Below, in pieces: positions 8,761 to 63,495 of a stretch of 64,000 nucleotides of DNA. The notes below the pieces were generated by a model. The model saw only the letters and a list, made by a program, of their open reading frames with translations. It made no database searches and was not told where the DNA came from. Both the position numbers and the translations under genes were made by a program. How positions within the stretch are numbered: position 1 is the stretch's first letter; every line of letters begins with the position of its first letter. The DNA comes from an uncultured Pseudomonadota bacterium (GTDB taxonomy: Bacteria; Pseudomonadota; Alphaproteobacteria; UBA9219). The stretch lies in the NCBI GenBank assembly GCA_903869345.1, contig CAIPYM010000071.1, forward strand, positions 14,891 through 78,890, read 5' to 3'.

Positions 8761-8765
8761 GGTTC

Positions 8766-44184: not shown

Positions 44185-44368
44185 ACCCCCCTGACCGGCT
44201 ACGGCCATGTGTCCACCGAACGGCAGGGGAAGATGATGGGGGGCTCGGGCAAGCCAAGGCAGCCCCCCCAACCGGACGATAAGAGGGCCGAGAAAACGGC
44301 TGAGATGGTTGCAGAGAAGATGAAAAAAGGGCGAGAATCTCAATGAGTTTCCGATTTCCGTCGCCGAG

Positions 44369-47300: not shown

Positions 47301-48254
47301 CTATATTTGTGATAACGAGATCGTTTTGCGTAGACGAGAGAATGGCAAAATGGATCAAGACAATGGCTGGTGGGGTTACGTCTATCCCAAAAATATCAAC
47401 AAACAACATTTACCCAAACTCCTCATCCCACGCCTAACTGAAAAATTAGGATGTGGCATTGACGCTGACGGCTTATTTGCGACAGATAATGTCGACGTGA
47501 ATGGTGTTATCCCCAAGCGAAGGGACGACTTGTATTTTCTTACCGCCATTTTAAATGGCCCCGTTGCTAATTTCGTGTGGCGAAGAATCTCCAAACCATT
47601 TCAAAACAACTTCATGTCGGCCAACAAACAATTTATCGCCCCTCTGCCCGTCCCTCAAGCGACCCCGCAACAATGCGCTGAAATCGCTGCGGCTGCTCAA
47701 AAACTTGAATCGATGCACTCTGATCTGCGCAGCCTGTACGCTGACGCCAAGAAACGTCTTGAAACCTGCCAATGGACGGAACACCAAGAAAGCCTTCTGT
47801 GGCCCGAACTGGAAGCGTTCAAAGGCCGTGGCGTGACAACCGAGCGCCTGGCGCGGCTGAAAGAATTGAAAGAAAGACTTAAGGAAGCACTCAGCGTTGA
47901 CGGCGAACTGTTGGTCGTTTGGAAAAAGGGCGAGTTATCCCTCCACGTTGGCAAGGCTCCTGTGCTTGACAACCTCTTCCTGACAGAAAGCCAAGGGCAG
48001 CTTTTGGCGATGGCGTGGCGCACAGCCTCTTGACCACACCTAGCCTGCGCGGAAACATTGACCGGCTTGTGGCGCGTCTGTGCCAAGTCCCCGCTACAAC
48101 AAACGCCTCTTTGCAGCAACAGCTTGCAGAGATAGACGCCAAGGTTGCTTCATTGCGATCTGAAATAGCCGCTGCTGAGTCCGCGATGAACGAAACTCTT
48201 TTTGCCCTCTACCGCCTCAAACCCGCCGAATGCGCGATGGTTTTGGCGGGATAA
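44369..48254 (+). pseudogene. Type IIG/Eco57I-like fused restriction-modification enzyme, disrupted
   Basis: PD-(D/E)xK IADAAL...LCEFKD; N6-MTase DPACGSGAFL and NPPY; TaqI-C-like KLLIPRL; interrupted by IS at ~44951-45552, frameshifts at ~47278 and ~48020. Confidence 0.85.
44951..45552 (-). mobile_element. Truncated IS5-family element (orfB plus end of orfA)
   Basis: DSQSVK, GFDGGKLISGIKRHIGVDTNG, RWVVERSFGWL; A7 frameshift run at 45485-45491; end TTAGAGCCTG at 44951; 5' half missing. Confidence 0.87.
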
Positions 48255-48385
48255 GAATTCAGCCTGGGGGCATAAAGGGGGGCACATGCGGACATGCAGA
48301 ATATGTTTCCGTTACCTATCAATATAAGGTGCTTCGAATCTCAGCTTTCAACAGAGGGAACGGGAGAGAGAGGCTGTCGCCCCCC

Positions 48386-49078
48386 TTAATCAATCCGTCC
48401 GGCTCCGCTGAGAGAGCGGAGTCCCTGCGAGCGCCAACGTGACAAGGCCTCCGTGCGGCTGCTTGTCTGAGGTGCGCGCACGTCGCCCGCGCCGCGCACA
48501 TCCCCCATTTGTTCTTGATCAAAGAGGTCAACAAGGGATTGAGGCAAGCGGCCATGCTCGGGAAAGCCACTGCCGATTCCTTCTTCCTCGCGGCCCCGAG
48601 GTCCACAGAAAAGAATCTGAGCCGTGCGACCATTACAGTTGGAATGCCACCCCGAATGCAAAAGCTTTTGCATGTCTCGGGATAGTTCCGGCAAACGGCC
48701 AAGAACATCTTGCAGAAGGGGGCGTAGGCTTTCGACTAAACGGTCGCTTGCCCGCTCAACCTCCTGGTGCCCACGTCCTGCCAAATCTTCATATTCATCG
48801 CGAAAGACATGAAGACGTCTAAGGATGTCGACCAGGCGTGTGGCCTTCTTTTGCCGCTGCTCATGCGATGCAAGATCAGAATCATCGAGGTAGGGTGGTT
48901 TGGTGTAAACGTCTACGGCCGTGGTGAACTGATCAATCACCACCTGGGCCCATCCCATCCATACGGAACACGAAGGTTTTACATCCACCATGGTGCCAAA
49001 CTCCATCCGATTCGTGCGCCCTAAACGGTACCGACGCCCGTGGTTGTCAAAATCTCCGAATCCCTCTTCCCCCCCCAC
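48386..49078 (-). CDS. Hypothetical protein
   Basis: 230-codon ORF between the RM relic and the tRNA; helical, no motif recognised; start uncertain. Confidence 0.35.
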   Translation of the reverse strand: MGGEEGFGDFDNHGRRYRLGRTNRMEFGTMVDVKPSCSVWMGWAQVVIDQFTTAVDVYTKPPYLDDSDLASHEQRQKKATRLVDILRRLHVFRDEYEDLAGRGHQEVERASDRLVESLRPLLQDVLGRLPELSRDMQKLLHSGWHSNCNGRTAQILFCGPRGREEEGIGSGFPEHGRLPQSLVDLFDQEQMGDVRGAGDVRAPQTSSRTEALSRWRSQGLRSLSGAGRID

Positions 49079-49194
49079 TTAGTCTAGGCCAGAGACGACT
49101 CCTTTCTCAAGAGCCGTGTCAGTTGGCCGTGTCAGCTGGCCCCTTGTGTTTTGGAGCAGTATCGGACAAGGTGACCGTCCTTTTCCGCGACCGT

Positions 49195-49270
49195 GGGGCC
49201 ATAGCTCAGCTGGGAGAGCGCGACAATGGCATTGTCGAGGTCAGGGGTTCGATCCCCCTTGGCTCCACCA
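49195..49270 (+). tRNA. tRNA-Ala(GGC)
   Basis: 76-nt cloverleaf GGGGCCA..TGGCTCCACCA; anticodon loop ATGGCAT with the A32-U38 pair typical of Ala(GGC); GTTCGA T-loop; encoded CCA. Confidence 0.97.
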
Positions 49271-49383
49271 TTTACACTTCCGAACATATCTCAAGACATC
49301 CAGGAAAACGGCAAAAACGGCCGTTTTCCATGGGGTTTTCGTCCCAAGAGCGTCCAGGGCATCCGTTGACATCCGGCCCCCCG

Positions 49384-49434
49384 TGGGGGCAACTTTGGGG
49401 GCAAGTGGATCATGCCGCTAAAGAGTTGCCCCCA
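49384..49434 (+). promoter_or_regulatory. Integrase arm-type sites (attL arm)
   Basis: TGGGGGCAACTTTGGGGGCA (49384-49403) and inverted TTGCCCCCA overlapping the int ATG. Confidence 0.72.
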
Positions 49435-50648
49435 TGCCGCTCACGAACACCGCGATTCGCCAGGCCAAGCCCACCGGGAAAACGGCCAAACTTTTTGACG
49501 ACCGGGGGCTGTACCTGGAGGTTTCTCCGACCGGGGGGAAGTGGTGGCGGCTGAAATATCGCTTTGACGGCAAAGAAAAGCGGTTGTCCCTGGGGGTCTA
49601 TCCCGACGTCAGCCTGAAAGACGCCCGCGAACGCCGCGACGAGGCCCGCAAGCGGCTTGCCGGTGGCATTGACCCCAGCGCATACCGCAAAATTCAGAAA
49701 ACGGCCGAGATCGCGCTCTCCGAACACAGTTTTGAGATCGTCGCTCGTGAGTGGGTGGCCAAGTACACCCCCCGCTGGGCCCCATCACATGCCAACAAGA
49801 TTCTTCAAAGGCTCGAAAAAGACGTCTTCCCCTGGATTGGTTCCAGACCCCTTGCGGAGATCACGGCTCCAGAATTGCTTGCGGTCCTGCGCCGCATCGA
49901 AACACGGGGTGCGGTGGATACCTCCCACCGTGCACAACAAAATTGCGGCCAGGTTTTTCGTTATGGGATTGCCACCGGACGTTGCGAACGTAACCCGGCG
50001 GGGGACCTTCGCGGCGCGTTGGCCCCGGTCCAGCACCGGCATTTCGCGGCGATCGTTGACCCCGACGACGTGGGGGCTTTGCTGCGCGCGATTGACGGGT
50101 TTCGAGGAACGCTTGTTGTCCAAAGTGCCTTGAGGCTTGCGCCGCTTCTCTTTGTGCGGCCGGGCGAGCTGCGCCACGCGAAGTGGGAACACTTCAACTT
50201 GGTCAAACGCGAGTGGCGCTACACGGTCAGCAAAACCAAAACCGAGCACCTTGTTCCCCTGGCCGATCAGGTCGTCGCGATCCTGGAGGACCTGCGCCCT
50301 CTGACGGGCAACCGGACGTATGTTTTCCCAGGGCGTGATCCCCTGAAACCCATGAGCGACGCCGCCATCAACGCGGCTCTGAAGCGCATGGGCTATGACA
50401 CCAAGACAGAGATCACCGGGCACGGCTTTCGTGCCATGGCTCGGACGATCCTGCATCAGGAACTGGGGATTCAACCGGAGGTGATTGAGCACCAGCTGGC
50501 CCACCGCGTGCCCGATGCCCTTGGCACCGCTTACAACCGCACCAAATTCCTCCCCCAACGCCGCGCCATGATGCAGCAGTGGGCGGATTATCTGGATAAG
50601 ATGAAAAGGGGGGCCGAGATTGTGGCGCTGCCCAAGAGAGCTTCATGA
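49434..50648 (+). CDS. P4-type tyrosine integrase
   Basis: Arm-binding domain KLFDDRGLYLEVSPTGGKWWRLKYRFDGKEKRLSLGVYP; catalytic RPGE, KTK, HGFR, QLAH, AYNR. Confidence 0.95.
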   Translation: MPLTNTAIRQAKPTGKTAKLFDDRGLYLEVSPTGGKWWRLKYRFDGKEKRLSLGVYPDVSLKDARERRDEARKRLAGGIDPSAYRKIQKTAEIALSEHSFEIVAREWVAKYTPRWAPSHANKILQRLEKDVFPWIGSRPLAEITAPELLAVLRRIETRGAVDTSHRAQQNCGQVFRYGIATGRCERNPAGDLRGALAPVQHRHFAAIVDPDDVGALLRAIDGFRGTLVVQSALRLAPLLFVRPGELRHAKWEHFNLVKREWRYTVSKTKTEHLVPLADQVVAILEDLRPLTGNRTYVFPGRDPLKPMSDAAINAALKRMGYDTKTEITGHGFRAMARTILHQELGIQPEVIEHQLAHRVPDALGTAYNRTKFLPQRRAMMQQWADYLDKMKRGAEIVALPKRAS

Positions 50649-50684
50649 TGGGATGCTGGTGACGATCACGAGCCTATTGGAATG

Positions 50685-50720
50685 GTCCTGGTTTCCCGAC
50701 CGATTCGACTGTGGTAGGCA
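50685..50720 (+). CRISPR. Orphan degenerate CRISPR repeat
   Basis: GTCCTGGTTTCCCGACCGATTCGACTGTGGTAGGCA aligns ungapped to the array repeat at 27/36, same orientation. Confidence 0.82.
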
Positions 50721-50782
50721 CGAGAAAACGAGGCATGAAGCGGAAGCCTTAGAAGGGGTTGGAATAAGGTGTTGAGGGGGAA

Positions 50783-51217
50783 ATGATGAATCGAGACCTT
50801 GCCATTGCCGCCACAGCCATCTACGGCCCTCGCTGGCAAAGTGAATTATCTCGCCACCTAGGCGTGAACGACCGCACTGTGCGGTATTGGGTGGCTGGCC
50901 GCCAGGTTCCTGACGGGGTGCTGGCGGCCCTCGCCGAGGCTTACGCTGACCGTGCCCTTGCCGTGATGTCCAACCTCGGTATGGGCGGACAGCCGATGGC
51001 CCTGGCCGTGTACGAAAACGATGAGGACCTAAAACGAATCACGGGGGACGAATGGAGTGCGGCGTTTCACACGCGAATCATGCAGCGCGTGGCGGAAAAA
51101 ACAGGTTCATCCCTCGTGACGGTACGCGCGGACGAGTACTTTGCGTGGCTGGAGGGCTCAGGGCAAGAGAACACGCCAGCGGCGCGTACGGCTTATGGCC
51201 GCAGAGTCAACGGGTGA
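50783..51217 (+). CDS. HTH-domain protein fused to an unknown C-terminal domain
   Basis: YGPRWQSELSRHLGVNDRTVRYWVAG (Cro/XRE-like HTH); GAGGGGG RBS. Confidence 0.72.
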   Translation: MMNRDLAIAATAIYGPRWQSELSRHLGVNDRTVRYWVAGRQVPDGVLAALAEAYADRALAVMSNLGMGGQPMALAVYENDEDLKRITGDEWSAAFHTRIMQRVAEKTGSSLVTVRADEYFAWLEGSGQENTPAARTAYGRRVNG

Positions 51218-51459
51218 ATGAAGAAACAAGAGCACCGGAGGCTTACGAAGCCGAAGCGGATCGTCAACAGTTGCACATGGCCTGTTTGATGGTGGTGAAA
51301 ATGGCGGGAGCGTTTTCTGTTCAAATCCACCGTGCGTTGTCTCGAAAAGCCGTGTTCAAGACCTCAACCTCGCGCATAAAAAAGGTATGTTTCCTTAACA
51401 AACCTGTTTGCCTTGAAGACCAAAGCGCCGTGGTTTCCCTACCGATTTGCCCATGGTAG
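51214..51459 (+). CDS. Possible 81-aa ORF coupled to the HTH gene, ending inside repeat 1
   Basis: GTGA start/stop overlap at 51214-51217; open until TAG in repeat 1. Confidence 0.3.
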   Translation: MNEETRAPEAYEAEADRQQLHMACLMVVKMAGAFSVQIHRALSRKAVFKTSTSRIKKVCFLNKPVCLEDQSAVVSLPICPW

Positions 51460-52585
51460 GTTTGGTAGGGTGAAGGGGGATGAAATGGTAGGGCCGTGGT
51501 TTCCCTACCGATTTGCCCATGGTAGGTTATCCTCTGTGGCGAAGAGTGTGCGCCTCACGCCGTGGTTTCCCTACCGATTTGCCCATGGTAGGTTAAGGCG
51601 GTGCAGCATGAACGCGCCCGTCCCGCCGTGGTTTCCCTACCGATTTGCCCATGGTAGGTTACACAGGCGCCTCTGCGCGAGTCTGGGACCGCCGTGGTTT
51701 CCCTACCGATTTGCCCATGGTAGGTTACGTCGTTGTTCCGCCCACGCCGCCGTTCCGCCGTGGTTTCCCTACCGATTTGCCCATGGTAGGTTCCTCCGTT
51801 TTCCTCAAGCATCGGCTGAAGAGCCGTGGTTTCCCTACCGATTTGCCCATGGTAGGTTACGGATGATAAAGACGTGAATGGTCACTACGCCGTGGTTTCC
51901 CTACCGATTTGCCCATGGTAGGTTCGGAGCGTTTGCTTGCAGCTTTTGTGCATAGGCCGTGGTTTCCCTACCGATTTGCCCATGGTAGGTTAAGAGGTCA
52001 ATCGCGCGGCGGTTCAGGGCGGCCGTGGTTTCCCTACCGATTTGCCCATGGTAGGTTTTTGGTCCACAGCAGCCCGTCGCGCCCGTTGCCGTGGTTTCCC
52101 TACCGATTTGCCCATGGGAGGTTCTGCTACGCCCGTCGGCTGAGTGGCGATGTGCCGTGGTTTCCCTACCGATTTGCCCATGGTAGGTTCGATTGTCCCG
52201 AGGCTCCGTTGTAAAATGTGCCGTGGTTTCCCTACCGATTTGCCCATGGTAGGTTGAAGAGGTCCTACCATGAGTGCTTCAAAGCGCCGTGGTTTCCCTA
52301 CCGATTTGCCCATGGTAGGTTCCCGTCCCGTTTTCCTTTTCCCCCCTCGGAGCCGTGGTTTCCCTACCGATTTGCCCATGGTAGGTTCGTGAAGGCCGTC
52401 GCAAAAATGGTTGGTGTGCCGTGGTTTCCCTACCGATTTGCCCATGGTAGGTTGTTGTCCTCCACGAGTACCCGCAAAAGGACGCCGTGGTTTCCCTACC
52501 GATTTGCCCATGGTAGGTTAAACTTAGACGCCTGGGTGATGGACTGGAGGCCGTGGTTTCCCTACCGATTTGCCCATGGTAGGTT
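51427..52585 (+). CRISPR. Type II-C CRISPR array: 18 x 36-bp repeats, 17 spacers
   Basis: Repeat GCCGTGGTTTCCCTACCGATTTGCCCATGGTAGGTT; 16 spacers of 30 nt and one of 31 nt; repeat 11 has T31G; strand inferred from tracrRNA pairing. Confidence 0.99.
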
Positions 52586-52643
52586 CCCTTGCTTGTAACA
52601 GCTTGGAATTGCTGTGATTTTCGCGCTTTCTTGTGCGCCGAAA
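52586..52643. promoter_or_regulatory. Short CRISPR leader (cas2-proximal, probable acquisition end)
   Basis: 58-nt gap between the last intact repeat and the cas2 stop; degenerate repeat is at the opposite end. Confidence 0.5.
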
Positions 52644-52973
52644 TCACAGCAAAACCATCTGATCCGCCCCGAATCGCTCGGTTTTTGGGGCCATTCCGAG
52701 CATAAGTTCCATGTGTCCATATTGCCGGTCCGTGACCTGCAACGCCCGGATACTCCCTTCCGAAGGAAGGGTTCCTCGAACACGCCGCAGGTGTTTTTCA
52801 ACCGCATCTTGCCCTCGGCACACGCGTGCGTAAACCGAAAATTGCAGCATCATAAAGCCGTCGTCTTTCAGCGCCCCGCGAAAGCGCGTGGCTCGCCGAC
52901 GCTGCTCTTTGCTGCCTACCGGAAGATCAAAGAAGACAAAGAGCCACATGAATCGGACATCCTCCTCGTTCAT
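52644..52973 (-). CDS. cas2: CRISPR-associated endoribonuclease Cas2
   Basis: RFMWLFVFFDLPV, DGFMMLQFSVYARVC, VTDRQY; ATGA overlap with cas1. Confidence 0.95.
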   Translation of the reverse strand: MNEEDVRFMWLFVFFDLPVGSKEQRRRATRFRGALKDDGFMMLQFSVYARVCRGQDAVEKHLRRVRGTLPSEGSIRALQVTDRQYGHMELMLGMAPKTERFGADQMVLL

Positions 52974-53875
52974 CGCGTCACCGGGTTTTCGGGGGGCCAC
53001 GCGGGCGTTTGCAAAAGGGTTGCGTCGCCCTGTTCCAGGACCCTGACCGTGGACGTTGCCACCGCCTCGGTTGCGACAAGAATGGTCATGTGGTCTTGGT
53101 CCATCAGGACCTCGCGCCCCAAAACAGTTGCCATGTGGCGTCGGTCGTCAACCGTCAATTCTCCTTCGGGAAAGGCGTCAGCACGACCCTGGGCCAGACG
53201 GTCCACAAAAGGCCGAAACGGCTCGATCAGGTCGTCCACCAGGTTAAAAGCGTTGGATTGCGAGTCGTGATGAACGCCAAAAACAGGCAAAAGGCCCGAG
53301 GCCACGCAGGCCCGCGCCAACGTGGCCCGCATAACGGCATACCCGTAATTCAGCAAGGCGTTGCGGCGGTCGCGGTCGTTGCTGCGCGTGAAGCCCTGGA
53401 AAAGCGAGGGCCAGTAAGCCTGGGCGGCTTGCGCTTCCAGGTTGTCGGGATCACCCGAGCCGACGCGCCGGGCCATGGCGAACAGGGCCTTGGCGTTGGC
53501 ACGATTCAGGGCTTGCAACACGGCGGCTTGGTTACGGATTTTGGCGACCACCAACGTTTGCCAAAGACGTTTTTGAAGCGGCAACCCCAGGTCCCTTTGC
53601 AGGTGAGCCACGTACGTCTGAGCGTGATGCTGATGAAAGGAAAGCAAGAGACCCGCTGGATGATGCCGCGAATCCGGCACGATCAGCGTGACACCGCTTT
53701 CGGCCAAAGCGGACAGCAACGAGCCCGTGATGCTGACGTGGACGGTATCCAGAACCACCCATGCCACATCTTCGAGCGCAAAGGAGGACTCGCCATCCTC
53801 CTGCGCCACGACGATTTGGCGGTCCCGAAGACTTAATCGGGCGGCTTGGGCAATGTGCAGACCTCGCCATGCCAT
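52970..53875 (-). CDS. cas1: Type II CRISPR-associated integrase Cas1
   Basis: MAWRGLHI, EDVAWVVLD, EAQAAQAYW, NALLNYGYAVMR, GVHH, NLVDDLIEPFRP. Confidence 0.96.
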   Translation of the reverse strand: MAWRGLHIAQAARLSLRDRQIVVAQEDGESSFALEDVAWVVLDTVHVSITGSLLSALAESGVTLIVPDSRHHPAGLLLSFHQHHAQTYVAHLQRDLGLPLQKRLWQTLVVAKIRNQAAVLQALNRANAKALFAMARRVGSGDPDNLEAQAAQAYWPSLFQGFTRSNDRDRRNALLNYGYAVMRATLARACVASGLLPVFGVHHDSQSNAFNLVDDLIEPFRPFVDRLAQGRADAFPEGELTVDDRRHMATVLGREVLMDQDHMTILVATEAVATSTVRVLEQGDATLLQTPAWPPENPVTR

Positions 53876-56800
53876 GTGCGGACCTCGCGTTTCACTTCGG
53901 CACATTGGCCGAAACGGTCCACAGTGTACTTTCTAATGCTTAATAAAGTCTTTGTACTCACCCTTTCAGAGAGGGACGAGCTCTTGTTGGAGAACAGCCT
54001 GATCTTTCCATTATCACGATCCACACCTCCCGCAAGATAACCTTCAACATGTTTTCCTTTTGCATCAACGGTTCTCACATAACTGCGGTCGTAGAGGCTG
54101 AAGCAAAACGTGTGCTCGGGGCCGATGTCCGTCCAGTCCCGCTCGTCCTTATGGGCAACAACGGCCTTGTTCGGAGGTAAACTGTCCTTTTCAATAAGTT
54201 GATGCGGGTAAATCGGCACTAAAAACCATTTGATTCGGTCCTTCTTGTCGGCCTGGCTGAACACATCCACGCGGACCATTTCGCCGCGTGCGGCAGTGCC
54301 GCCTCGAACGCTGATCCCGGGCTTGTCCGTTGTCACGCAGCGGACTTTGGTGATCACGTCCCCCTGCGGTGAACGCGGGAGAGCATCGGCAGGTTTACCT
54401 TTTTCGATCCACGCCTTCAGGGATTCGATGATGGCCGCGTTGCGTTCGGGATCTTTGATTTGGTCCAGATTCTTAGCCGTCAACTCGTTGATGTCTTTGC
54501 GTTCCGAGACCACGGGGCCTTGATCCGAATCCCACACTTGTCGAATCGTCTCCTTGTGCCCTGCGCCCCGCGCACGCCGACGCTCGGGCCGGGCGACAAA
54601 GACCGAGTCATAGGCCTTCAGCACATCGTCCCTGAACGTGGGCCAAGGCGGCGTGACGTGGCGCAGAGGGCGACCCAGACCTTTTTGTTCCCACTGTTGG
54701 AAGGATTGGGTCAACCGTTGCACTTCGCCTTCACCCACCGCTGCCACGGTGAGTGCATCGATCGCATGGTGCCGAGAATCCTCCACGCGCTCACCGTTGA
54801 CCTTCTTGAGTGATTCGAGGCCCCACGCATGCCGCAACGTGGCCGTGAGGGCTCCGGGCCGCGTGAACACACGCCGATGGCCGCCTTTTTCCTGCCGCTC
54901 CCCGACGGGATAGAACAGCTTGACCGCCTCCGCGAGAAGGCGCGTTGCGTAACGTGTGTCGTTGAGGTTGCGGCTTCTGAACTTCTGCGCTACCTCGTCG
55001 GCGTTTTTCAGAAGGCAGTTGCGCTTCTTGAACCCGCGAAGGTTTTTGTTGGTCTCGATGCGTTGGGCAAAGAGCAGCCAATCCTCGGGGGATTTTGCAC
55101 GGCTGAACCATTCGTAGGGCGTTTGTCCCCCTTTGTCTTGGTTGGCCTTCGCCAGGCACAAAACCTTGTTGTTGAAACTGTCATCGCCAAAGCGGGACCA
55201 GGGCAAGATATGATCCACCTGGACGCTGTTGTCGGTGGCCGCGATTTGATCGGGGTGAATTTCCTGATCCGTATAGGGGCATCGTCCATTTTGTTCCTTC
55301 CAGAGGCGGTAGCGCAGCAACGTGTCACCGTTAACGTCCTCTCTGTTTGCAATCCCCAAAAGCTCCTGGGCTTCGCCGCGTTCTTTCTCGCGCTTGGCCT
55401 GGGTTTCCTTGTTCTTTCTGTCCAGCTCACCGCGTTTTTCGGCGCTGTTGCCGACATCACGAGCCATCTCGATATGAACGGCGCCGGGCAAGCCATAGCG
55501 GTTGCGGAGGGCCCACAGTTGTTTAAGCCCTTCGGTCAACGCCTTGCGGGCCACGGGATTCGCAATGCTGGCGGTCACGTCCGCGACCAGGGCCGTAAAC
55601 TGGGCCTTGGTCGTCACATGCTCGCTTTGCGATAACGTGGAAGCAGCGTGGTTGTACCCAGCGTGGGCGCACGCCTCATCGTAGCGCAAACCTTGCTCCA
55701 GGTAGGGCACAAGGTTGCGACACGCTTTGGCAGAAATATGCCCCGCGCCTTTGAAGGGGTCGGTTAATTTGCCGTCTTCAAGAGCAGCAAGGAGTTTTTC
55801 GAGGATCCCTGCTTCCAGGGGAATCGTACGCAACTCTTTTGCGATGCTCGCGGACGATTCAAAGAAGGTGAACGCACGGGCCATAGCATCGAGTTGATCG
55901 GGATGCTGAAGCATCTTCTGCCATAAATCTTCGCCCAGAGCATTTTTAAGAGCCTTGGTTCCCCCCATGGCCTCGCCTTTGCCAGCAGCAATATCTCGTT
56001 CCTGGTCAGGCTTATCTTGGGGAATGCCTACAAAGGGCTCGTCCTCGGACAGCCCTATTTTTTTGCGAACAGCCTTAACGGTAAGTTTGGCAACGCTCCC
56101 TAAATCAGCAGTGGCTCGTGCGATTTCCTCCGGGGTCAGGGCGCGTTCCCCGGTTGCCGTCTTGACCCGCAGATTCACGAGACGTTGAAGAAGGCGAAAC
56201 TTTTCGAACGAGGGGGATCGTTTGGCGGCTCTTTTCTCAGTGGGTTCAAAGGGACAGAGGCCTACCAAACGCTCGCTATCTTGCAGGGGCCTTTGGTAAA
56301 ACGCGATATCCGTGAACGCCTTTTCCAACTCCGGCGAAGCGAATGCTTGTCCAAACCGACGTTGTGCAGCGAACAGAGCCGTCACTTCCTTCGTCAGGTC
56401 TTCACGACCAACGGTGCGGTCGTAGCGTTTCTCGCGGTTGCGTTTGCGGTCCTGAAAATCGGGATCACAGGCAAACATTTCACCGACGGTACGATACGGG
56501 GCTTGCTTTTCCTGCGTGATTTTCAGCGCGGACAACATCTTTTTGTCGTCCGGACTCTCCGTCTTGCGTTTGGCAGACGATTTGAATCCTCGGTGCTTGG
56601 CGATATGCCCCAGGGCAACCGCGAACTCCAGGGGTCTCAACGCTTCATCCAGACCCCGTCCCCGCACGTCCCAAGGATTAATGGACGGCTTCTTGAAAGG
56701 ATGGGGAGGGGCGCGATGATCCAGCGGATGATGGAGAGCCTGGGCCTCCGCCGAAGGGAGAAGGCCGTTTGCGTGAAAGAGGCCTCGAATGTCTGCCATG

Positions 56801-57021
56801 CGCTGGCAACGACGGCGGAGAACACGGCGAAGAAGCCGAAAGCCTCGCCGCTCCTGATTCTTGGGGGTGCGATCTTTGGGGTTTTCCGGCGCGTCGAAAC
56901 ACCAGCTTCCCAGGCCCTCAATCACCGAGGCTTCACCCGCGTGCGTCGGTTGCCGCAGAACAGCCCAACCGCATGAGGCAATGCCAAGGTCAAGGCCAAA
57001 AACCAAACGCTCATCTGTCAT
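53833..57021 (-). CDS. cas9: Type II-C Cas9, 1062 aa
   Basis: RuvC-I GLDLGIASCGW, Arg-rich bridge helix, RuvC-II HIEMARD, HNH VDHILP...NKVL...N, RuvC-III HHAIDA; GGGAGG RBS; no csn2 or cas4 in the locus. Confidence 0.97.
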   Translation of the reverse strand: MTDERLVFGLDLGIASCGWAVLRQPTHAGEASVIEGLGSWCFDAPENPKDRTPKNQERRGFRLLRRVLRRRCQRMADIRGLFHANGLLPSAEAQALHHPLDHRAPPHPFKKPSINPWDVRGRGLDEALRPLEFAVALGHIAKHRGFKSSAKRKTESPDDKKMLSALKITQEKQAPYRTVGEMFACDPDFQDRKRNREKRYDRTVGREDLTKEVTALFAAQRRFGQAFASPELEKAFTDIAFYQRPLQDSERLVGLCPFEPTEKRAAKRSPSFEKFRLLQRLVNLRVKTATGERALTPEEIARATADLGSVAKLTVKAVRKKIGLSEDEPFVGIPQDKPDQERDIAAGKGEAMGGTKALKNALGEDLWQKMLQHPDQLDAMARAFTFFESSASIAKELRTIPLEAGILEKLLAALEDGKLTDPFKGAGHISAKACRNLVPYLEQGLRYDEACAHAGYNHAASTLSQSEHVTTKAQFTALVADVTASIANPVARKALTEGLKQLWALRNRYGLPGAVHIEMARDVGNSAEKRGELDRKNKETQAKREKERGEAQELLGIANREDVNGDTLLRYRLWKEQNGRCPYTDQEIHPDQIAATDNSVQVDHILPWSRFGDDSFNNKVLCLAKANQDKGGQTPYEWFSRAKSPEDWLLFAQRIETNKNLRGFKKRNCLLKNADEVAQKFRSRNLNDTRYATRLLAEAVKLFYPVGERQEKGGHRRVFTRPGALTATLRHAWGLESLKKVNGERVEDSRHHAIDALTVAAVGEGEVQRLTQSFQQWEQKGLGRPLRHVTPPWPTFRDDVLKAYDSVFVARPERRRARGAGHKETIRQVWDSDQGPVVSERKDINELTAKNLDQIKDPERNAAIIESLKAWIEKGKPADALPRSPQGDVITKVRCVTTDKPGISVRGGTAARGEMVRVDVFSQADKKDRIKWFLVPIYPHQLIEKDSLPPNKAVVAHKDERDWTDIGPEHTFCFSLYDRSYVRTVDAKGKHVEGYLAGGVDRDNGKIRLFSNKSSSLSERVSTKTLLSIRKYTVDRFGQCAEVKREVRTWHGEVCTLPKPPD

Positions 57022-57090
57022 AGTGTCCTCCCTGTTGCCCCTGTTGTTCCGGCCCTTGACTTTATGCTGCAATTCTGGCCCATTGGCTAT

Positions 57091-57185
57091 GGCAAATCGG
57101 TGGGGAAGCCACGGTAACGGAGTTACCGAAAGGTTTCTCCGGAAGGATCATCCCCCATCGGGCAACCGGTGGGGGAAATTCTTTT
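57091..57185 (+). ncRNA. tracrRNA
   Basis: Anti-repeat GGCAAATCGGTGGGGAAGCCACGGT pairs 25/25 (3 G-U) with the repeat 5' part; GAAA and GCAA tetraloop hairpins; U-rich end. Confidence 0.87.
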
Positions 57186-57291
57186 GAGCCGCCTGTAAGC
57201 CTTCTCTTCAAGCACCGTCGCCTTTACCACGTCCCGTCTTGTCGGCTAAGCTCCGGACCGTTCTCGTTACGTCTCGATGGGGCTTGGTGCC

Positions 57292-58503
57292 ATGACCCGC
57301 CACTACGCCACAAAGCATTTCTTTCGGCAGATGCCGAACGAGCTTTTAGGGCGGTATTTTCAGACCAAGGATGTTCTTAAGGACGTTGACTTCGCGGCAC
57401 TGCCGAAGAAGAAGCCGGACAAACTGTTCGCGGCTTGGTTGAAATTGCCGGACACACAACGCAACGCGATGGATGCCGAACTGCACGAGATTTTCGCGCT
57501 GTGCTGCGAGAAGGGGGTTATCGCCATTCTGGACGAAGCCGAATGGCAATTGCGTGAATCGCCTGAAGCCCTGAGTGCCCTTGTGGAGAAACTCTCGGCC
57601 CTGCCCGGCCATTTTGAACGAGCCATGGTGACGTTTCTGGATCATCCCGCGTTTTGGCAAGGGGCATGTCTTTTCTGCCACGCGGACACGCTGGGGTTTT
57701 GGCGAAAACGCAACAACATCCCTCAGAAGCACGCGCGTACGGACCCAAAGAGCCGGAAGGATTTGGCCCATCAAATCAGCACCTATTTCCATCACACGGA
57801 AGGGCGCGGACAGAACTGCGTGGTTGAGGCGTATCGGCGCGGCGAAAGGGACTATTTCTTCTGCTACCCCGAGGACCACGCGCAACAAGGTATCGAATGG
57901 GTCAACGGTGAATGCGCCCGCCGCCCGCATAACCCAGCGTTTGAGATTGTGTACGTCTATGCGCAAAAAGAAGGGTCTTTGGACCTGAGTTTTCGCGGCT
58001 CTTCTAAGGCCGTTGGACCTTTGCAGGCGATGTTCGCCTTGTCCATTTTGAACGTGGAGGAGCTGCTTCCCGATTCCCGCGACACGCGCGTCTATGACCT
58101 GGAGCCATTGCGCAAAAGGAGCTTCCGTTTTAGCTACCCCGTGGACAGCGGCATTCAACGGGTGGCCGTCAAAAAACTCCGCCTTTCGTCGCGGATCAAA
58201 CAGGGCGAGCGTCTGACGCTGGAGGCTGACACCGAAGAGAATGCCGAAGCGATTTACGATCTGTTGGATCAGGTCAAAAAATCCCCCGAGTTTCGCCTTT
58301 ACAATTACCATGTCACGCAGGTGGAGCTGGTGGCCTGCGTGGCCCTTCGTGTGGACAAGCCGCCCAAGACTTTCCCCATCCGGCTCACGTACCCCAATTC
58401 ATGCTCGCTCAAGTATGACGACATCGGGCTGAAGCTGCGGGATATGCTGCAATGCTCGGGGATTGAACCCAAGCAGCCGGAATCGGCCCCCTCTGACGCA
58501 TGA
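57292..58503 (+). CDS. Uncharacterised island protein (~403 aa)
   Basis: Long ORF TRHYATKHFFRQMPN...TYPNSCSLK; ATGA-coupled to the next ORF. Confidence 0.75.
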   Translation: MTRHYATKHFFRQMPNELLGRYFQTKDVLKDVDFAALPKKKPDKLFAAWLKLPDTQRNAMDAELHEIFALCCEKGVIAILDEAEWQLRESPEALSALVEKLSALPGHFERAMVTFLDHPAFWQGACLFCHADTLGFWRKRNNIPQKHARTDPKSRKDLAHQISTYFHHTEGRGQNCVVEAYRRGERDYFFCYPEDHAQQGIEWVNGECARRPHNPAFEIVYVYAQKEGSLDLSFRGSSKAVGPLQAMFALSILNVEELLPDSRDTRVYDLEPLRKRSFRFSYPVDSGIQRVAVKKLRLSSRIKQGERLTLEADTEENAEAIYDLLDQVKKSPEFRLYNYHVTQVELVACVALRVDKPPKTFPIRLTYPNSCSLKYDDIGLKLRDMLQCSGIEPKQPESAPSDA

Positions 58504-59243
58504 CGCCGGAGGAAACCCTTGAGGCTTGGCTTGCTGTTCTGGCGGCTCGTCCAGGCGCGGTTGCTGTGATCGGCCAAGAGGGCCTGCAGGATTGGGACAG
58601 AACGGTTGTTGACGCTTTCAAGGCCAAAGGATTGCTGAAAAAAGCACATCCCGGCGCAAGCATCCCATGCCCCGGTTGTGAAGAGCAGTGTGTGAGGCCG
58701 GTGCACGTTCTGCCCGGCGCTTCGATGGCGTTCATCGTGTGTGATCTCCGCAGTGATACCAACCGCGTGCCGATTCCTTTGGCGAGTCTTGATCGGTGGC
58801 AGACGTCCGGTGATGCGCTGGCCGCCTTGCTGACAGCTATGTTGGGGATTCATCAGCCTGTTGCCCGGAGGGATGCGCCAGGTCGCTGGGAGATTGGCAA
58901 CCTCAAAGGCAAGAAACACGCTAGCCACGTGGTGCTGATGGCCGAGGACGAATTTCTTTTGTCTCTGGCAGGGCACACGGTCAGGCTTACGGAAGTGTTG
59001 GGATTTGAAAAAGGCTCTTTCTGGATGGATCAAAAAAAGTTGACGCATTGCGTGGATAACCCAGCTTCTGGCGGTGGGGATCGGGAATCGGCGCAAGAAC
59101 GGCGGCAGAGGCTTAGGCGTGAACACAATGAGGAAATAGCTAAAGGTAATCGTGCGCCCACCAAGACATTGGCCCTACGCGAAGGCCGTACGGAACGTCG
59201 GATCAGAGCGCTTTTGGAAGACGAAAACAAATCAGTCGTTTGA
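58500..59243 (+). CDS. Uncharacterised protein with Cys cluster and probable C-terminal HTH
   Basis: CPGCEEQC...C motif; basic C-terminus KTLALREGRTERRIRALL. Confidence 0.68.
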   Translation: MTPEETLEAWLAVLAARPGAVAVIGQEGLQDWDRTVVDAFKAKGLLKKAHPGASIPCPGCEEQCVRPVHVLPGASMAFIVCDLRSDTNRVPIPLASLDRWQTSGDALAALLTAMLGIHQPVARRDAPGRWEIGNLKGKKHASHVVLMAEDEFLLSLAGHTVRLTEVLGFEKGSFWMDQKKLTHCVDNPASGGGDRESAQERRQRLRREHNEEIAKGNRAPTKTLALREGRTERRIRALLEDENKSVV

Positions 59244-59267
59244 ACAAAATCGCGCGAGCATCCCGTG

Positions 59268-59340
59268 AGGGGTTCCGCCCTAAGCCCTAAAAGTCGAGCT
59301 TTTCTGAGCTCTTTAGGGCGGAATATTGCACGGAACCCCT
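59268..59340. promoter_or_regulatory. Nested inverted repeats upstream of alpA
   Basis: TTCCGCCCTAA/TTAGGGCGGAA, AGGGGTTCC/GGAACCCCT, GAGCT/AGCTC. Confidence 0.55.
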
Positions 59341-59394
59341 GTGCCGCCCCTTTAATCCCTAACCATGTTCAACAACGCCCAAGGAGGCGCCGAC

Positions 59395-59610
59395 ATGGTT
59401 ACGACAATCCTCAGACTTCCCAACGTCAAGGCCCGCACGGGACTTTCTCGCAGCACCCTCTACCTGCGCATCGCCACGGGCACTTTCCCCAGGCCCATCT
59501 CACTTGGCGGCCGAGCCGTTGGATGGGTCGAAGAGGAAGTGGACGCCTGGCTGACCCAACGCATTCAGGCTCGTCGTCCGTCCTCGTCCAAAGTGGAGGG
59601 CCGGTCATGA
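59395..59610 (+). CDS. alpA: AlpA-family regulator / excisionase
   Basis: ILRLPNVKARTGLSRSTLY...FPRPISLGGRAVGWVEEEVDAWL; AAGGAGG RBS. Confidence 0.93.
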   Translation: MVTTILRLPNVKARTGLSRSTLYLRIATGTFPRPISLGGRAVGWVEEEVDAWLTQRIQARRPSSSKVEGRS

Positions 59611-62162
59611 CGCGCGTGACAGATTCCGATGCCCCACCCGACAAAACCTCCGAAACCGGCAAAACCGACACCGTGAGCAACGGGGAGTTTCTGCGCACGG
59701 TGTTTGGGGAGGGGTTGGGGGATGTGCGGCCGGTTCTGGTGAGCTTCGCCGGCAATCCGACCAACATCCCCAAAGGGGCATGGTTCGGACGCGCCTGGTC
59801 CGAAGAGGGCACAACGGACCAGCTTCTCCCTCCCACCGCCAACAATTATTTCAGCCTAGCGGTGTTTCGCCCGGACGAGGCGGGGCAGTACCGACGGCAA
59901 AAGGCGCGTTTCCATGCGCTTTATGCCGTGATGCTGGACGATATTGGAAGCAAGGTGGCGAAGGATAGGCTGACGTTACAGCCAAGCTGGCTCCTTGAAA
60001 CCTCGCCCGGAAACTACCAGGCCGGGTACCTGCTCAAGGAACCTCTTACAGACGGCAACGCCGCTGACCGGTTGATGCAAGCGATTGTGAATGCCGGGCT
60101 ATGCGACCCCGGGGCCAACGGGCCTCGTGCGCGGCTTGCGCGTTTGCCGGTGGCGGTGAACGGAAAACACACACCGCCTTTCCGTTGCCAAATGGAGGAA
60201 TGGGAGCCCAAGCGGCGCTATGCCGTGCAAGAACTGGTGGATGGGCTTCAGCTGGAAATCGCCCCGACAAAACGGCCCGAGCGTCGGGACACCCGAGGGA
60301 CAGGAACGTCCCCGGTGGATGGCGACCCGATCTGGATTCCTCGACCAACGGAAAACGCTGTCCTTGCCGCTCTGCATCATCGCGGGTTGTACAAATCCCC
60401 TCTGGGTGACGGCAAACACGACATCACCTGCCCTTGGTCCGAGGAGCACACCGACGGGACGGACAGCGGCACAGCCTACTTTGAGCCGGAGGACCATTGG
60501 CCTCTGGGCGGCTTCAAATGCCTGCATGGGCATTGCGCCGAACGGCACATCCGCGACCTGCTTCGCGTGCTCGACATTGAGGTAGGTGCGGCGCGCATGA
60601 AGCCCACCATCCGCATCATGGCGGGGGAAATTCATCGTGTTGTGGACGCCGCTGAGCGCGAATTGGCCCAGTCCTGTCGGCACTACCAGCGCGGCAGCCT
60701 GATCGTCACCGTTGTGACCGATCCTGGCACGCTTGAAACCCGCGTGCAGGAAGTTTCGCAGCCTGCCTTGGTCCGAGCGTTGGCGGGTGCAGCAACATGG
60801 GAGCGCTTTGACGCACGATCCCAAGCGTGGGTGCGCACAGATCCGCCCGCTCGTCATGCGGTCGTGCTGCACGACGCCACCAGTTACGCACACTTGCCCG
60901 TGCTTAACGGACTGGCACGCCAACCTTACCTGCGAGCGGATGGGAGCCTGATGCAGACAGCAGGCTATGACCAAGCCACAGGCATGTTTGGTGTGTTCGC
61001 CGAACACGCGTTTTCTGTCCCTGAAAAACCGAGCCGTGCTGAGGCCGAAGCCGCGCTTGCGCTGCTGAACGATCTCTTGGGGGAGTTCAGTTTTGCCGCA
61101 GAATCTGACCGCGCGGCCGCCTTGGCAGCCCTGTTGACGGCGGCTCTACGTCCCAGCCTCGCCCTTGCGCCCATGTTTCATGCGCGGGCCCACGTGGTCG
61201 GTTCCGGCAAATCCTACTTGTGCGAATTGATCACAGCCTTTGCCACCCCCCAACGCAGTGCTCCGACGACTTTCCCCGCCGACGATGAAGAATGCCGGAA
61301 ACTTCTGCTTGCCGAATTGCTACGGGCTCCAGCGGTGATTGAGTTTGATAACCTCAACGGTGATCTGATGGCCCACAAAAGTCTCTGCACCACGCTCACC
61401 TCAGGATTCCTTGAAGGACGCATCCTGGGCGTCTCGAAGACCGCGACCGTCAGCACCCGCGCCCTGTTTTTATCAAGCGGCAACAACGTCGGCCCTGTGA
61501 AGGACATGACACGGCGTTGCCTGACCATCCGCCTCGACCCCAGTCTGGAGGTCCCGGCGGCACGCACTTTCAAGCGGCCCGACCTGGTGCGCGAGCTGCT
61601 GCGAGAACGGGGACGCTACGTTTCGGCGGCGTTGACCCTCGTGCGGGCCTGGATTGTTGCGGACAGGCCCAAGAGCGTCTGCAAAGCCCTGGCAGGCTAT
61701 GGCGAATGGTCCGACCTGTGCCGCCAACCGCTGCTGTGGCTCGGCTGTGCCGACCCGACCGCCTCGGTCTTTGAGGCCATGGCAGAAGACCCCGACCGCG
61801 AGACTTTGGCACGGCTGCTCATTTCTTGGTGGGAGGCGTTTGCGGACCAGCCTACCCGCATTCGAGAGGCCATTCATCGGGCAACCATGAACCCCACCAC
61901 TAACAATGATTTAAACGAAGTGCTGAATGACATTGCCAGCGAACGTGGCGAGATCAACCGCCGCCGCTTGGGATGGTGGATCAAGCACCATACCGGATGC
62001 ATGGTGAACGGTCTGCGCTTTGTCCGTGCGAGCGGAAACAGCTCGGCAGAGAAGTGGCGGGTGGAATCGGTTTTGCCGGTTTTGCCGGTTTCTTCCAGCC
62101 CCAAGGCAGAAGCTGTCACAGGGGAAGATGACCTCCGGCAGGTGCCTTCAGGCGAGGGATAA
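59607..62162 (+). CDS. Primase-helicase (RepB-like primase, Zn-finger, SF3-like ATPase), 851 aa
   Basis: VMLDD...PSWLLETSPGNYQAGY; CPW...H...CLHGHC; Walker A GSGKS, Walker B IEFDN; ATGA overlap with alpA. Confidence 0.85.
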   Translation: MTRVTDSDAPPDKTSETGKTDTVSNGEFLRTVFGEGLGDVRPVLVSFAGNPTNIPKGAWFGRAWSEEGTTDQLLPPTANNYFSLAVFRPDEAGQYRRQKARFHALYAVMLDDIGSKVAKDRLTLQPSWLLETSPGNYQAGYLLKEPLTDGNAADRLMQAIVNAGLCDPGANGPRARLARLPVAVNGKHTPPFRCQMEEWEPKRRYAVQELVDGLQLEIAPTKRPERRDTRGTGTSPVDGDPIWIPRPTENAVLAALHHRGLYKSPLGDGKHDITCPWSEEHTDGTDSGTAYFEPEDHWPLGGFKCLHGHCAERHIRDLLRVLDIEVGAARMKPTIRIMAGEIHRVVDAAERELAQSCRHYQRGSLIVTVVTDPGTLETRVQEVSQPALVRALAGAATWERFDARSQAWVRTDPPARHAVVLHDATSYAHLPVLNGLARQPYLRADGSLMQTAGYDQATGMFGVFAEHAFSVPEKPSRAEAEAALALLNDLLGEFSFAAESDRAAALAALLTAALRPSLALAPMFHARAHVVGSGKSYLCELITAFATPQRSAPTTFPADDEECRKLLLAELLRAPAVIEFDNLNGDLMAHKSLCTTLTSGFLEGRILGVSKTATVSTRALFLSSGNNVGPVKDMTRRCLTIRLDPSLEVPAARTFKRPDLVRELLRERGRYVSAALTLVRAWIVADRPKSVCKALAGYGEWSDLCRQPLLWLGCADPTASVFEAMAEDPDRETLARLLISWWEAFADQPTRIREAIHRATMNPTTNNDLNEVLNDIASERGEINRRRLGWWIKHHTGCMVNGLRFVRASGNSSAEKWRVESVLPVLPVSSSPKAEAVTGEDDLRQVPSGEG
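62067..62092 (+). repeat. Putative replication iterons (GGTTTTGCC tandem), inverted copy at 59652-59668
   Basis: TCGGTTTTGCCGGTTTTGCCGGTTTC; GAAACCGGCAAAACCGA near the gene start. Confidence 0.55.
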
Positions 62163-62206
62163 CAGCGTGATTTGCCAAATGATTTCGGAAAAAACGGAGG
62201 GCCAAA

Positions 62207-62812
62207 ATGGGCGGATACGGCAGCGGGCAAGGTCGACATTACGGCGCACACGACGCAACCAATGACTACCGGGCTCTTGATGTGCGGCGCTGGCAACGGG
62301 ATGGACTTCTTGTGCCGGACCGCGTCTTCAGCTGGCAATGGAGTTGTGACGGCGAGGTGATGGCCTGGATTCGCGTAGGCGTCGAAGAGGGTTATGTGCG
62401 TTTAATCTACCGCCACCGAAGCCCAGGCGACGTTGAATGGAAGGACGAGGATTATCCCGTCGCACTTGATTGGACCTCCTGCCGTTTGGGCGGGCGACGT
62501 CCTTGGTTCCTCTGTCCTGCACGGGGATGCGGCCGCCGGGTCGCGATCCTCTACGGAGGCGGTATCTTTGCTTGCCGTCGCTGCTACCGACTGGCCTACC
62601 CAAGCCAGCGCGAAACCTGGGATGACCGAGCCGCACGGCGAGCCGACCGCCTACGCGACAAGCTGAAGTGGGAACCCGGCATTCTCAACGGGAACGGCTG
62701 GAAGCCGAAGGGCATGCACCAACGCACTTTCAACCGTCTTGTGGCCCAACATGACGCCCATGTGGAAAGGTCGCTCGCAGGCATGGTACTACGCTTTGGC
62801 ATCAAGCTGTAG
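62207..62812 (+). CDS. Island-associated Zn-finger hypothetical protein
   Basis: MGGYGSG start; CPARGCGRR...CRRCYRLAYPSQRE. Confidence 0.75.
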   Translation: MGGYGSGQGRHYGAHDATNDYRALDVRRWQRDGLLVPDRVFSWQWSCDGEVMAWIRVGVEEGYVRLIYRHRSPGDVEWKDEDYPVALDWTSCRLGGRRPWFLCPARGCGRRVAILYGGGIFACRRCYRLAYPSQRETWDDRAARRADRLRDKLKWEPGILNGNGWKPKGMHQRTFNRLVAQHDAHVERSLAGMVLRFGIKL

Positions 62813-62828
62813 TCCCGTTAAACACACA

Positions 62829-62923
62829 TGGGGGCAACTTTAGGGGCAGGTCTTTTTGGGAAATTGATGATAGGGATTGTTTTTCAAAGGGTTGCGCATT
62901 TTGTTCGATAGACCTTGGCCCGA
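62829..62923 (+). mobile_element. Right attachment region (arm plus degenerate core)
   Basis: Arm TGGGGGCAACTTTAGGGGCA (62829-62848, 19/20 to left arm); core GTTCGATAGACCTTGGCCCGA (62903-62923), 16/21 to tRNA 49247-49267. Confidence 0.68.
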
Positions 62924-63102
62924 TTTGCCGACGTTCGGCACCGTTCACCCAAACCTCGCAAACATCAACAAAACCGCCACCTTCGGTTCGCGGATGTTCG
63001 GGATTGTTCCTTGCGAGCCGGTACCGCGTGGGGGTAACTTTGGGGGTAACGGTACAGGGCGTGGGGTAACAACCCTGCTCCGGAACCTCGGGAGTTACCC
63101 CC

Positions 63103-63495
63103 ATGACGCTGTCCCACCTGACGATTCAAACCGCCAAACCCAAGGCCAAGTCCTACAAAATGTCCGGCGAGAAGGGCCTTTTCCTGCTTGTTACCCCCAA
63201 GGGGCAGAAATGGTGGCGGCTGAAATACCGCTTTGACGGCAAAGAAAAGTCTCTCTCGCTGGGCGTTTATCCCCAGGTCAGTCTCAAGGAAGCCAACGAT
63301 CGCCGCGATAAGGCGCGGGACCTCCTCGCTGAGGGCGTTGATCCTTCCGCGAGCCGCAAGGCCAAAAAAGAAGGGAACGTCCAAGAAACCACCAACACGT
63401 TTGAGGCCGTTGCGCGTGAATGGCTTGGCAGGCAATCGAACATCGGGCGAACATCGGGGCCGAATCACATTGTAGACAGAAGAAAGCAAGGATGA
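63103..63495 (+). pseudogene. Truncated second P4-type integrase (arm-binding domain only)
   Basis: KMSGEKGLFLLVTPKGQKWWRLKYRFDGKEKSLSLGVYP...TFEAVAREW, then divergence and stop; own arm sites TGGGGGTAACTTTGGGGGTA at 63029-63048. Confidence 0.87.

Follow-up and report, generated by a model that had tools for sequence, protein, structure and literature searches.

A 13.66-kb integrative element at a tRNA-Ala gene with a complete type II-C CRISPR-Cas9 system as cargo

[quoted passage not shown] In Vibrio, complete CRISPR-Cas systems are reportedly found on mobile genetic elements that include genomic islands; as far as the title and term counts of that study indicate, we know of no type II-C case among them. 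CampyICE1 of Campylobacter is the closest described precedent for a mobile type II-C Cas9, and is a conjugative element of 70–129 kb that carries a type II-C Cas9 and CRISPR arrays without cas1 and cas2 (PMC8743540). Among smaller elements, the phage-inducible chromosomal minimalist islands, or PICMIs, of Vibrionaceae possess genes for an integrase, for AlpA and for a primase, three functions that are sufficient for excision and replication (PMC10803314). Elements with int, alpA and a primase alone are classed by SatelliteFinder as "Type C PICI" (phage-inducible chromosomal island), an assignment that is ambiguous to its authors (PMC10085698), and the hotspots of P2 and P4 have been reported to lack bacteriophage exclusion (BREX), type I restriction-modification (R-M) and type I CRISPR-Cas systems owing to a packaging limit (PMC9122126). 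Here we describe a 13.66-kb island in the 3' end of a tRNA-Ala(GGC) gene, located in a 64,000-nt stretch of DNA (the window; contig CAIPYM010000071.1 of assembly GCA_903869345.1, positions 14,891 to 78,890 of the forward strand) from an uncultured alphaproteobacterium of the UBA9219 lineage. It is likely, in our judgement, that the island belongs to a widespread and uncharacterised family of small integrative elements, predicted to be self-replicating, with a cargo slot that is occupied here by a complete type II-C CRISPR-Cas9 system.

The island consists of a P4-type integrase gene (int), the cargo, and a right-hand block of five genes in the order p408, p247, alpA, prim (the replicase or primase gene) and zn201. 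The CRISPR module (50685–57186, 6.5 kb) makes up 48% of the ~13.66-kb span, and the G+C content of the island is 58.5%, compared with 62.5% for the upstream chromosome. A first-pass annotation, made from the sequence alone, had proposed a satellite-like integrative element at tRNA-Ala, and every part on its list is there, at the position given or no more than a few bases away. The intact integrase adjoins the 3' end of the tRNA gene, and the cas locus is enclosed by the backbone, with int on its left and p408-p247-alpA-prim-zn201 on its right, both as had been claimed. The description as an integrative element with a complete type II-C system as cargo stands. The island shares with CampyICE1 the presence of a type II-C Cas9 and CRISPR arrays on an integrative mobile element but is 13.7 kb in length, has no recognised conjugation genes and contains a complete cas9-cas1-cas2-tracrRNA set. 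The CRISPR-Cas-bearing elements of Vibrio differ from it in their integrase and backbone families and are mostly larger.

The cas locus contains an apparently intact set of cas9, cas1, cas2, trans-activating CRISPR RNA (tracrRNA) and array. All the Cas9 catalytic motifs that had been reported as intact are readable in the translation: RuvC-I (GLDLGIAS), RuvC-II (IHIEMARD), HNH (DHILPW...NNK) and RuvC-III (HHAIDAL). The 256-nt gap between cas9 and p408 holds the tracrRNA, the anti-repeat of which is complementary to the CRISPR repeat at 22 of 24 positions and which ends in an 11-bp GC-rich terminator (57151–57176) followed by a T run to 57186. On the other side of the operon the gap between cas2 and the array is only 58 nt, and no further open reading frame (ORF) is recognised in the cas locus. 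The absence of csn2 and cas4 identifies the system as type II-C and apparently complete. Each repeat ends in an extended −10-like sequence, TGGTAGGTT, which suggests that the array is transcribed on the + strand. Through such a system, host and island alike would gain adaptive immunity to phages or to competing elements.

The position that the cas locus occupies is a hotspot for defence cargo in related elements. Homologous backbones with other cargo were searched for and found, and in these the interval between int and p408 ranges from nearly empty (~950 bp in locus L033) to a complete type I R-M system (L051, L207 and L210), a 1595-aa PDC-S37/Hhe-like helicase-nuclease (L027) or a type II methyltransferase (L020). 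Upstream of p408 and divergent from it are type I R-M systems in six further loci (L006, L008, L010, L023, L035 and L052), a type III methyltransferase (L062), an SNF2/DrmD-like gene (L028) and a BREX system (L203; BrxB and BrxC, 1497 bits). The same divergent position holds a type I-C CRISPR-Cas operon with the order cas3-cas5c-cas8c-cas7c-cas4 in L007, a type I-E system in L015 and, on the 251-kb contig L212, a complete type I-E operon with its array; the same protein is present on 14 contigs from several sources. The cas9 gene of the window lies in the same place and orientation as the slot cargo of these relatives, which together with the variability of the defence systems in the slot gives the idea of cargo good support, and CRISPR-Cas recurs as cargo in this backbone family. 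In the 80 genome loci described below, no CRISPR array was found at a distance of up to 10 kb from the primase. In L212, the region 242–9842 has an HTH_17 gene and a 343-aa tyrosine integrase after the primase, so that its integrase stands at the end opposite to that in the window.

The backbone is widely distributed, and its primase family occurs in several phyla at 50–79% identity. The 851-aa replicase has at least 1806 homologues, the best of which are 72–79% identical and none of which is annotated. Scanning one genome per species with an alignment as query recovered 80 replicase loci with 48–77% identity; the same scan with a single primase sequence gave no match, and an alignment query was therefore required. 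The hosts include Beta-, Gamma- and Alphaproteobacteria, Nitrospirota, Thermodesulfobacteriota and Acidobacteriota, among others, a cross-phylum range for which the binning of short contigs into metagenome-assembled genomes calls for caution and in which several of the loci lie on contigs of 45 kb to 2 Mb. Searches by tblastn with the island proteins revealed two layouts. The minimal one consists of int, ~1.2 kb, alpA and the primase, and the extended one, p408, p247, alpA, primase and zn201, is seen in 21 loci. The relatives are integrated at tmRNA (transfer-messenger RNA) and at tRNA-Phe, -Met, -Ser, -Leu, -Arg and -Pro genes. In four of them (L010, L028, L060 and L062) no gene stands between zn201 and the tRNA, in agreement with the right end that we propose for the island. 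L051 displays the gene order of the island with other cargo (tmRNA, int, type I R-M, p408 to zn201), and L207 and L210 have SmpB, tmRNA, int, type I R-M, p408, p247 and alpA followed by a Toprim_3/DUF3987 primase that is P4-alpha-like and not of the 851-aa family. The occurrence of the p408-p247-alpA block with a different replicase indicates that the modules recombine. Downstream of this block with its Toprim_3/DUF3987 primase (12540–14960 in L207) is a DruA gene. A full-text literature search found neither an account of the present backbone family nor a report of satellite-like int/alpA/primase elements with CRISPR-Cas, which does not prove novelty.

Table 1. Features at the tRNA-Ala locus, with positions in the window
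Feature	Position	Strand	Description
tRNA-Ala(GGC)	49195–49270	+	ARAGORN; Rfam tRNA 60.7 bits; 3' end ~49246–49270 = attL core
Integrase arm-type repeats	49384–49434		tandem pair TGGGGGCAA at 49384 and 49396 (period 12)
P4-type tyrosine integrase (int)	49434–50648	+	404 aa, intact; Arm-DNA-bind_3, Phage_int_M and Phage_integrase domains
Solitary degenerate CRISPR repeat	50685–50720	+	27/36 to consensus; 37 nt past int stop
Helix-turn-helix (HTH) protein	50783–51217	+	144 aa; weak HTH_3/MerR and PHROG repressor matches
CRISPR array	51427–52585	+	18 repeats of 36 nt (17 identical), 17 spacers of 30–31 nt
cas2	52644–52973	-	PF09827, TIGR01573
cas1, type II (NMENI subtype)	52970–53875	-	TIGR03639, 277 bits
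cas9, type II-C	53833–57021	-	1062 aa; TIGR01865, 628 bits
tracrRNA	57085–57186	+	anti-repeat 57091–57114, stem-loops, terminator
p408	57277–58503	+	conserved backbone protein, first gene right of cargo slot; phrog_37634 (function unknown)
p247	58500–59243	+	conserved backbone protein, always adjoins p408
alpA	59395–59610	+	AlpA/Vis-type excisionase-regulator, 71 aa; PF05930 E 2.8e-19
Primase/helicase-like replicase, putative (prim)	59607–62162	+	851 aa; PHROG matches and motifs
zn201	62207–62812	+	201-aa Cys4 zinc-ribbon protein, terminal backbone gene; next to att or tRNA in relatives
Right arm-type repeats	62829–62849	+	TGGGGGCAA then TAGGGGCAG, period 12; copy at 62841 diverged
Candidate attR core	62902–62926	+	degenerate; placed 53 nt past arm repeats, as in P4 attP
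Remnant of earlier or tandem element, outside island	63011–63495	+	arm repeats TGGGGGTAA at 63029, 63041 and 63095

The ends of the island show two features expected of a tRNA-integrating island, namely an intact integrase by the 3' end of the tRNA and arm sites that flank the core as they do in the P4 attP. An inverted copy of the arm repeat (49426–49434) overlaps the int start codon. The exact 9-mer TGGGGGYAA has eight copies in the 64-kb window, and all eight lie within 49384–49434 or 62829–63199, a confinement to the ends of the island that is more than chance. The P4 attP likewise has tandem arm repeats with a 12-nt period on both sides of the core, and its int start codon carries an inverted copy. 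The distances from core to arm also correspond. On the right side the gap is 53 nt, between 62849 and GTTCGAT at 62903, and on the int side it is 113–117 nt, from the end of the tRNA-derived core to 49384, compared with 53 and 112 nt in the P4 attP.

Besides these sites, the island shares two genes with P4 itself: its integrase is 40% identical to P4 Int over the full length (E 7e-99) and its AlpA is 49% identical to P4 ORF88/Vis, and these are the only island genes homologous to P4. Like the P4-like satellites, including cryptic elements of the CP4-57 type, the island is integrated at a tRNA gene, has a defence hotspot next to int and falls in a size range of ~11–14 kb. In contrast to them, it lacks psu, sid, delta and epsilon, none of which was matched when BLASTP was run against all P4 proteins (E <0.1), and its replicase is unrelated to P4 alpha by profile comparison (hhalign probability 3.7%, confined to the Walker A region) and has neither a Toprim nor a DUF3987 domain. 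Further differences are that p408, p247 and zn201 have no P4 counterpart, that the hotspot of the family holds CRISPR-Cas, type I R-M and BREX systems, which P4-like satellites reportedly lack (PMC9122126), and that the hosts of the family lie outside Enterobacterales. Membership of the P4-like group was therefore rejected, int and alpA being present and alpha, psu, sid, delta and epsilon being absent. That no capsid, psu, sid or terminase gene is recognisable, as first reported, is borne out by Pfam, NCBIfam, PHROG and PADLOC models and by BLASTP against P4 proteins. The first-pass annotation had also called a CRISPR-Cas9 system unusual cargo for so small an element; this holds in comparison with P4-like satellites (PMC9122126) but not within the island's own family, in which large systems including type I CRISPR-Cas are usual.

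Of the PICI functions, the island has int, an alpA-type regulator and a primase-replicase (the last by PHROG and motifs only), and no packaging component is recognisable. It resembles the PICMIs (PMC10803314) and the "Type C PICI" (PMC10085698), with which it has in common the int-alpA-primase core, the lack of capsid-remodelling genes and the defence cargo. It differs from the PICMIs in being integrated in tRNA-Ala rather than next to fis, of which the flanking genes give no sign, in its larger size, in its three extra conserved genes and in a replicase family that is not covered by Pfam.

To characterise the backbone proteins we used profile, motif and structure comparisons. The 851-aa ORF is predicted to be a primase/helicase-like replicase on account of matches to PHROG families named "DNA primase" and "polymerase/primase" (E 1e-14 to 1e-19), a sub-threshold RepB_primase match, and motifs that can be read in its sequence: MLDDIG at an AEP-like N-terminus, CPW..EHT..GGFKCLHGHC as a Cys/His cluster, GSGKS as Walker A and LSSGNN as an SF3-like motif C. 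A 965-aa ORF from a mechanical ORF list was discarded as an over-extension across alpA in another frame, and the 851-aa gene call is preferred. The p408 protein has 1842 homologues, all hypothetical, and no Pfam match; its AlphaFold2 model (pLDDT, the predicted local distance difference test, 65) matched no fold significantly in either PDB or BFVD, and no HUH motif was found by reading the sequence and its conserved residues. Sequence and profile searches of PDB with the primase, p408, p247 and zn201 yielded nothing meaningful. Four abundant protein families, the replicase and p408 (>1800 homologues each), p247 and zn201, are thus without functional annotation.

These components suggest how the island might move. 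The integrase and AlpA would excise it at attL and attR, the putative replicase would then amplify the excised circle, and the circle would be transferred by a vehicle that is not encoded on the island. We think packaging by a helper phage, in the style of the PICMIs, somewhat likelier as that vehicle than conjugative mobilisation. None of the island's ORFs has a relaxase, type IV coupling protein (T4CP) or type IV secretion system (T4SS) domain, and no packaging or capsid component (terS, ppi or rpp) is recognisable in p408, p247, zn201 or the 144-aa HTH protein.

Several results weigh against the proposal that the island is one of a mobile, self-replicating family. The replicase label derives from PHROG names and motifs, with no match in Pfam, NCBIfam or PDB, and the AlphaFold2 model of this protein, built from a 30-sequence alignment, had a pLDDT of 38 and was unusable. 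The candidate attR core agrees with the tRNA 3' end at 16 of 25 positions (14 of 17 over GTTCGAT...CCTTGGC), which does not exceed the best chance matches elsewhere; the support for attR is therefore positional. The relatives have no clear attR either, since no repeat of the tRNA or tmRNA 3' end of 10 nt or more was found in a fitting position; the few exact matches of 10–11 nt look like chance, and short imperfect candidates are seen only in L044, L011 and L051. In the three relatives with type I CRISPR-Cas cargo (L007, L015 and L212) no integrase could be made out beyond the cas operon. Searches with the exact proteins of both flanks and the integrase remnant returned neither an empty site nor an attP junction, and the island is there on each contig that includes the flanking genes, all these contigs being clonal. 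The Cas9 island was found on seven contigs from at least three samples, all 100% identical to the window, and hence represents one clone. Finally, no spacer target was identified, the matches being at chance level when the whole array was compared with 50,697 phage records and 72,556 plasmids, five spacers with IMG/VR, and the spacers with 190 fetched loci and the window.

It is quite possible, if short of probable, that the island was integrated long ago, is unable to excise and is decaying, with Cas9 now effectively a vertically inherited chromosomal locus. The degenerate attR core, the truncated integrase remnant next door, which shows decay at this site, and the identical copies in all samples with no empty site found are what such an island would leave. 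In addition, a small ribbon-helix-helix or HTH gene that is divergent from p408 in L051, L203 and L195 is missing here, and the tracrRNA and cas9 are found instead. Against immobility, however, the backbone ORFs are all full length and match their relatives end to end, the int ORF is intact, and the arm sites are intact on both sides. Moreover, GTTCGAT and CCTTGGC are shared between the tRNA and the candidate attR, and tyrosine recombinases require identity in a short overlap only. This copy of the island may no longer be mobile.

We regard it as doubtful that the island is a true phage satellite, induced through AlpA by a helper, replicating and packaged into helper capsids, with p408, p247 and zn201 as a helper-exploitation module. 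The three PICMI functions of integrase, AlpA and primase, which can be enough for a satellite (PMC10803314), form the core that P4-like elements and PICIs have in common (PMC10085698), the hotspot adjoins int as it does in P4 (PMC9122126), p408 matches a PHROG family, and p408 and p247 are placed between the hotspot and alpA, the position of psu-delta-sid in P4. The island nevertheless has no homologue of psu, sid, delta, epsilon, terS, ppi or a capsid gene, and its replicase is not P4 alpha; with the three core genes only, it would be an ambiguous "Type C PICI" in the SatelliteFinder scheme. The BREX, type I R-M and type I CRISPR-Cas cargo of the family exceeds the capsid-limited load of P4-like satellites (PMC9122126), only one of 23 IMG/VR matches is a full-length relative of the primase, and the cross-phylum range of the family is broad for dependence on a helper phage.

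An integrative mobilisable element that hitch-hikes on a conjugative element, its circle maintained by the replicase and its oriT or relaxase (p408?) unrecognised, would account for the high identity of the primase family across phyla and for the unlimited cargo size. The lack of any phage-related structural or packaging gene and the presence of three conserved proteins of unknown function are also in keeping with it. We consider this improbable, given that no ORF has a relaxase, T4CP or T4SS domain, p408 has no HUH motif and the window contains no conjugative element. Chance juxtaposition, in which a cas island with its own integrase lies beside a separate p408-to-zn201 element or the cas genes entered by an unrelated event and are non-transferable, has in its favour the second integrase fragment just past zn201, the integrase that follows the primase/zn201 end in L212 and L069, and the Cas9 relatives that adjoin a tRNA and an integrase of other kinds (L101, L102 and L109), but is very improbable because the same int family is linked to p408-to-zn201 over a variable slot in L051, L033, L207 and L210, arm sites matching this int bracket the whole 13.66 kb and not a sub-part, and the remnant int shares just 52% identity and comes with variant arm sites of its own (TGGGGGTAA).

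The proposed family membership concerns the backbone; the Cas9 cargo has a separate distribution. The cas9, cas1 and cas2 genes of this type are absent from all ~85 backbone relatives (the 80 genome loci and others fetched subsequently), and conversely the primase, p408, p247 and zn201 are absent from all 80 metagenomic loci that encode Cas9 relatives (43–62% identity). The closest Cas9 homologues that have a name are alphaproteobacterial. Chromosomal type II-C loci of Rhodospirillum sp., Brucella endophytica and Gluconacetobacter diazotrophicus resemble that of the island in the order cas9-cas1-cas2 followed by the array and encode Cas9 proteins that are 61–65% identical to it; in contrast to the island, the two closest (65% and 64%) sit between housekeeping genes and have no int/alpA/primase backbone. 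The first-pass annotation had considered that relatives without the backbone might carry the same cas locus at this position, and the closest cas loci instead lie elsewhere, in ordinary chromosomal context. The array of a Tistrella mobilis megaplasmid can be aligned with that of the island (72% identity over 86% of the query). A single capture from a chromosomal type II-C lineage of alphaproteobacterial kind is, from these comparisons, the probable origin of the cas operon. There is no evidence yet for spread of the Cas9 version of the island. Apparent variants among the samples were rejected: the short "array" of L003 and L004 (Logan contigs) reflects an assembly in which the repeats collapsed into one, and differences in gene length between samples are differences in gene calling only. 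Logan contigs L003, L004 and L090, from two samples, break within tRNA-Ala at 49222–49241, which is likewise an assembly effect. Three of the 80 loci with Cas9 relatives, L101 (8466–13147), L102 (1497–13135) and L109 (820–13153), adjoin a tRNA gene and an integrase, whole or fragmentary, of another kind; an alpA is present in L102 and L109 as well. It may be that type II-C loci occur in further tRNA-associated islands.

Half of this 13.7-kb integrase/AlpA/primase element is occupied by a complete Cas9 system, adaptation genes included. Should the family prove mobile, it would constitute a compact natural carrier of whole adaptive immune systems across phyla and would contradict the view, derived from P4-like satellites, that satellite-sized elements hold small defence systems only. 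A bolder interpretation, which we put forward tentatively and rate as unlikely on present data, is that the elements form a large, cross-phylum and undescribed class, defined by a P4-type Int, AlpA, a swappable replicase and p408/p247/zn201, whose slot shuttles whole large defence systems between distant bacteria, among them complete CRISPR-Cas systems of at least three subtypes (II-C, I-C and I-E). Through such a class adaptive immunity would spread horizontally by an unrecognised route; the elements could also represent a novel sort of phage satellite free of any capsid-size limit, and p408/p247 could be a new module for helper exploitation or transfer.

Minor features were noted within the CRISPR module. 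The solitary degenerate repeat marks its left edge, and the 144-aa HTH gene separates this repeat from the array. By tblastn over the loci of backbone relatives and of Cas9-locus relatives, the HTH gene matches the same clone only; it may interrupt an older section of the array, or it may have come along with the CRISPR module as a regulator. Spacer 1 (51463–51492; TGGTAGGGTGAAGGGGGATGAAATGGTAGG), the furthest from the cas genes, is G-rich and has TGGTAGG, the motif that closes the repeat on its 3' side, at both its start and its end; it may derive from the repeat rather than being a true protospacer copy.

The island lies in a region with other signs of integration. The remnant beyond its right end includes an integrase fragment (63103–63495) that comprises the 130-aa N-terminal arm-binding part (PF13356, E 1e-24) and is 52% identical to the intact int. 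This is left from an earlier or tandem element of the same integrase family at the same tRNA, of which everything but the arm repeats and the fragment is gone. Core genes follow downstream of the remnant (a radical-SAM activase, CTP synthase and SecG), and the upstream chromosome contains the housekeeping genes for Lnt, SecD, AckA, Pta, BamB and PurF. On the other side of the tRNA, the region 41000–49194 has a G+C content of 55.4%, compared with 62.5%, and holds an MmeI-type type IIG restriction-modification gene (45527–47437) together with several family-less ORFs; this region may be a second variable or defence region that abuts the same tRNA.

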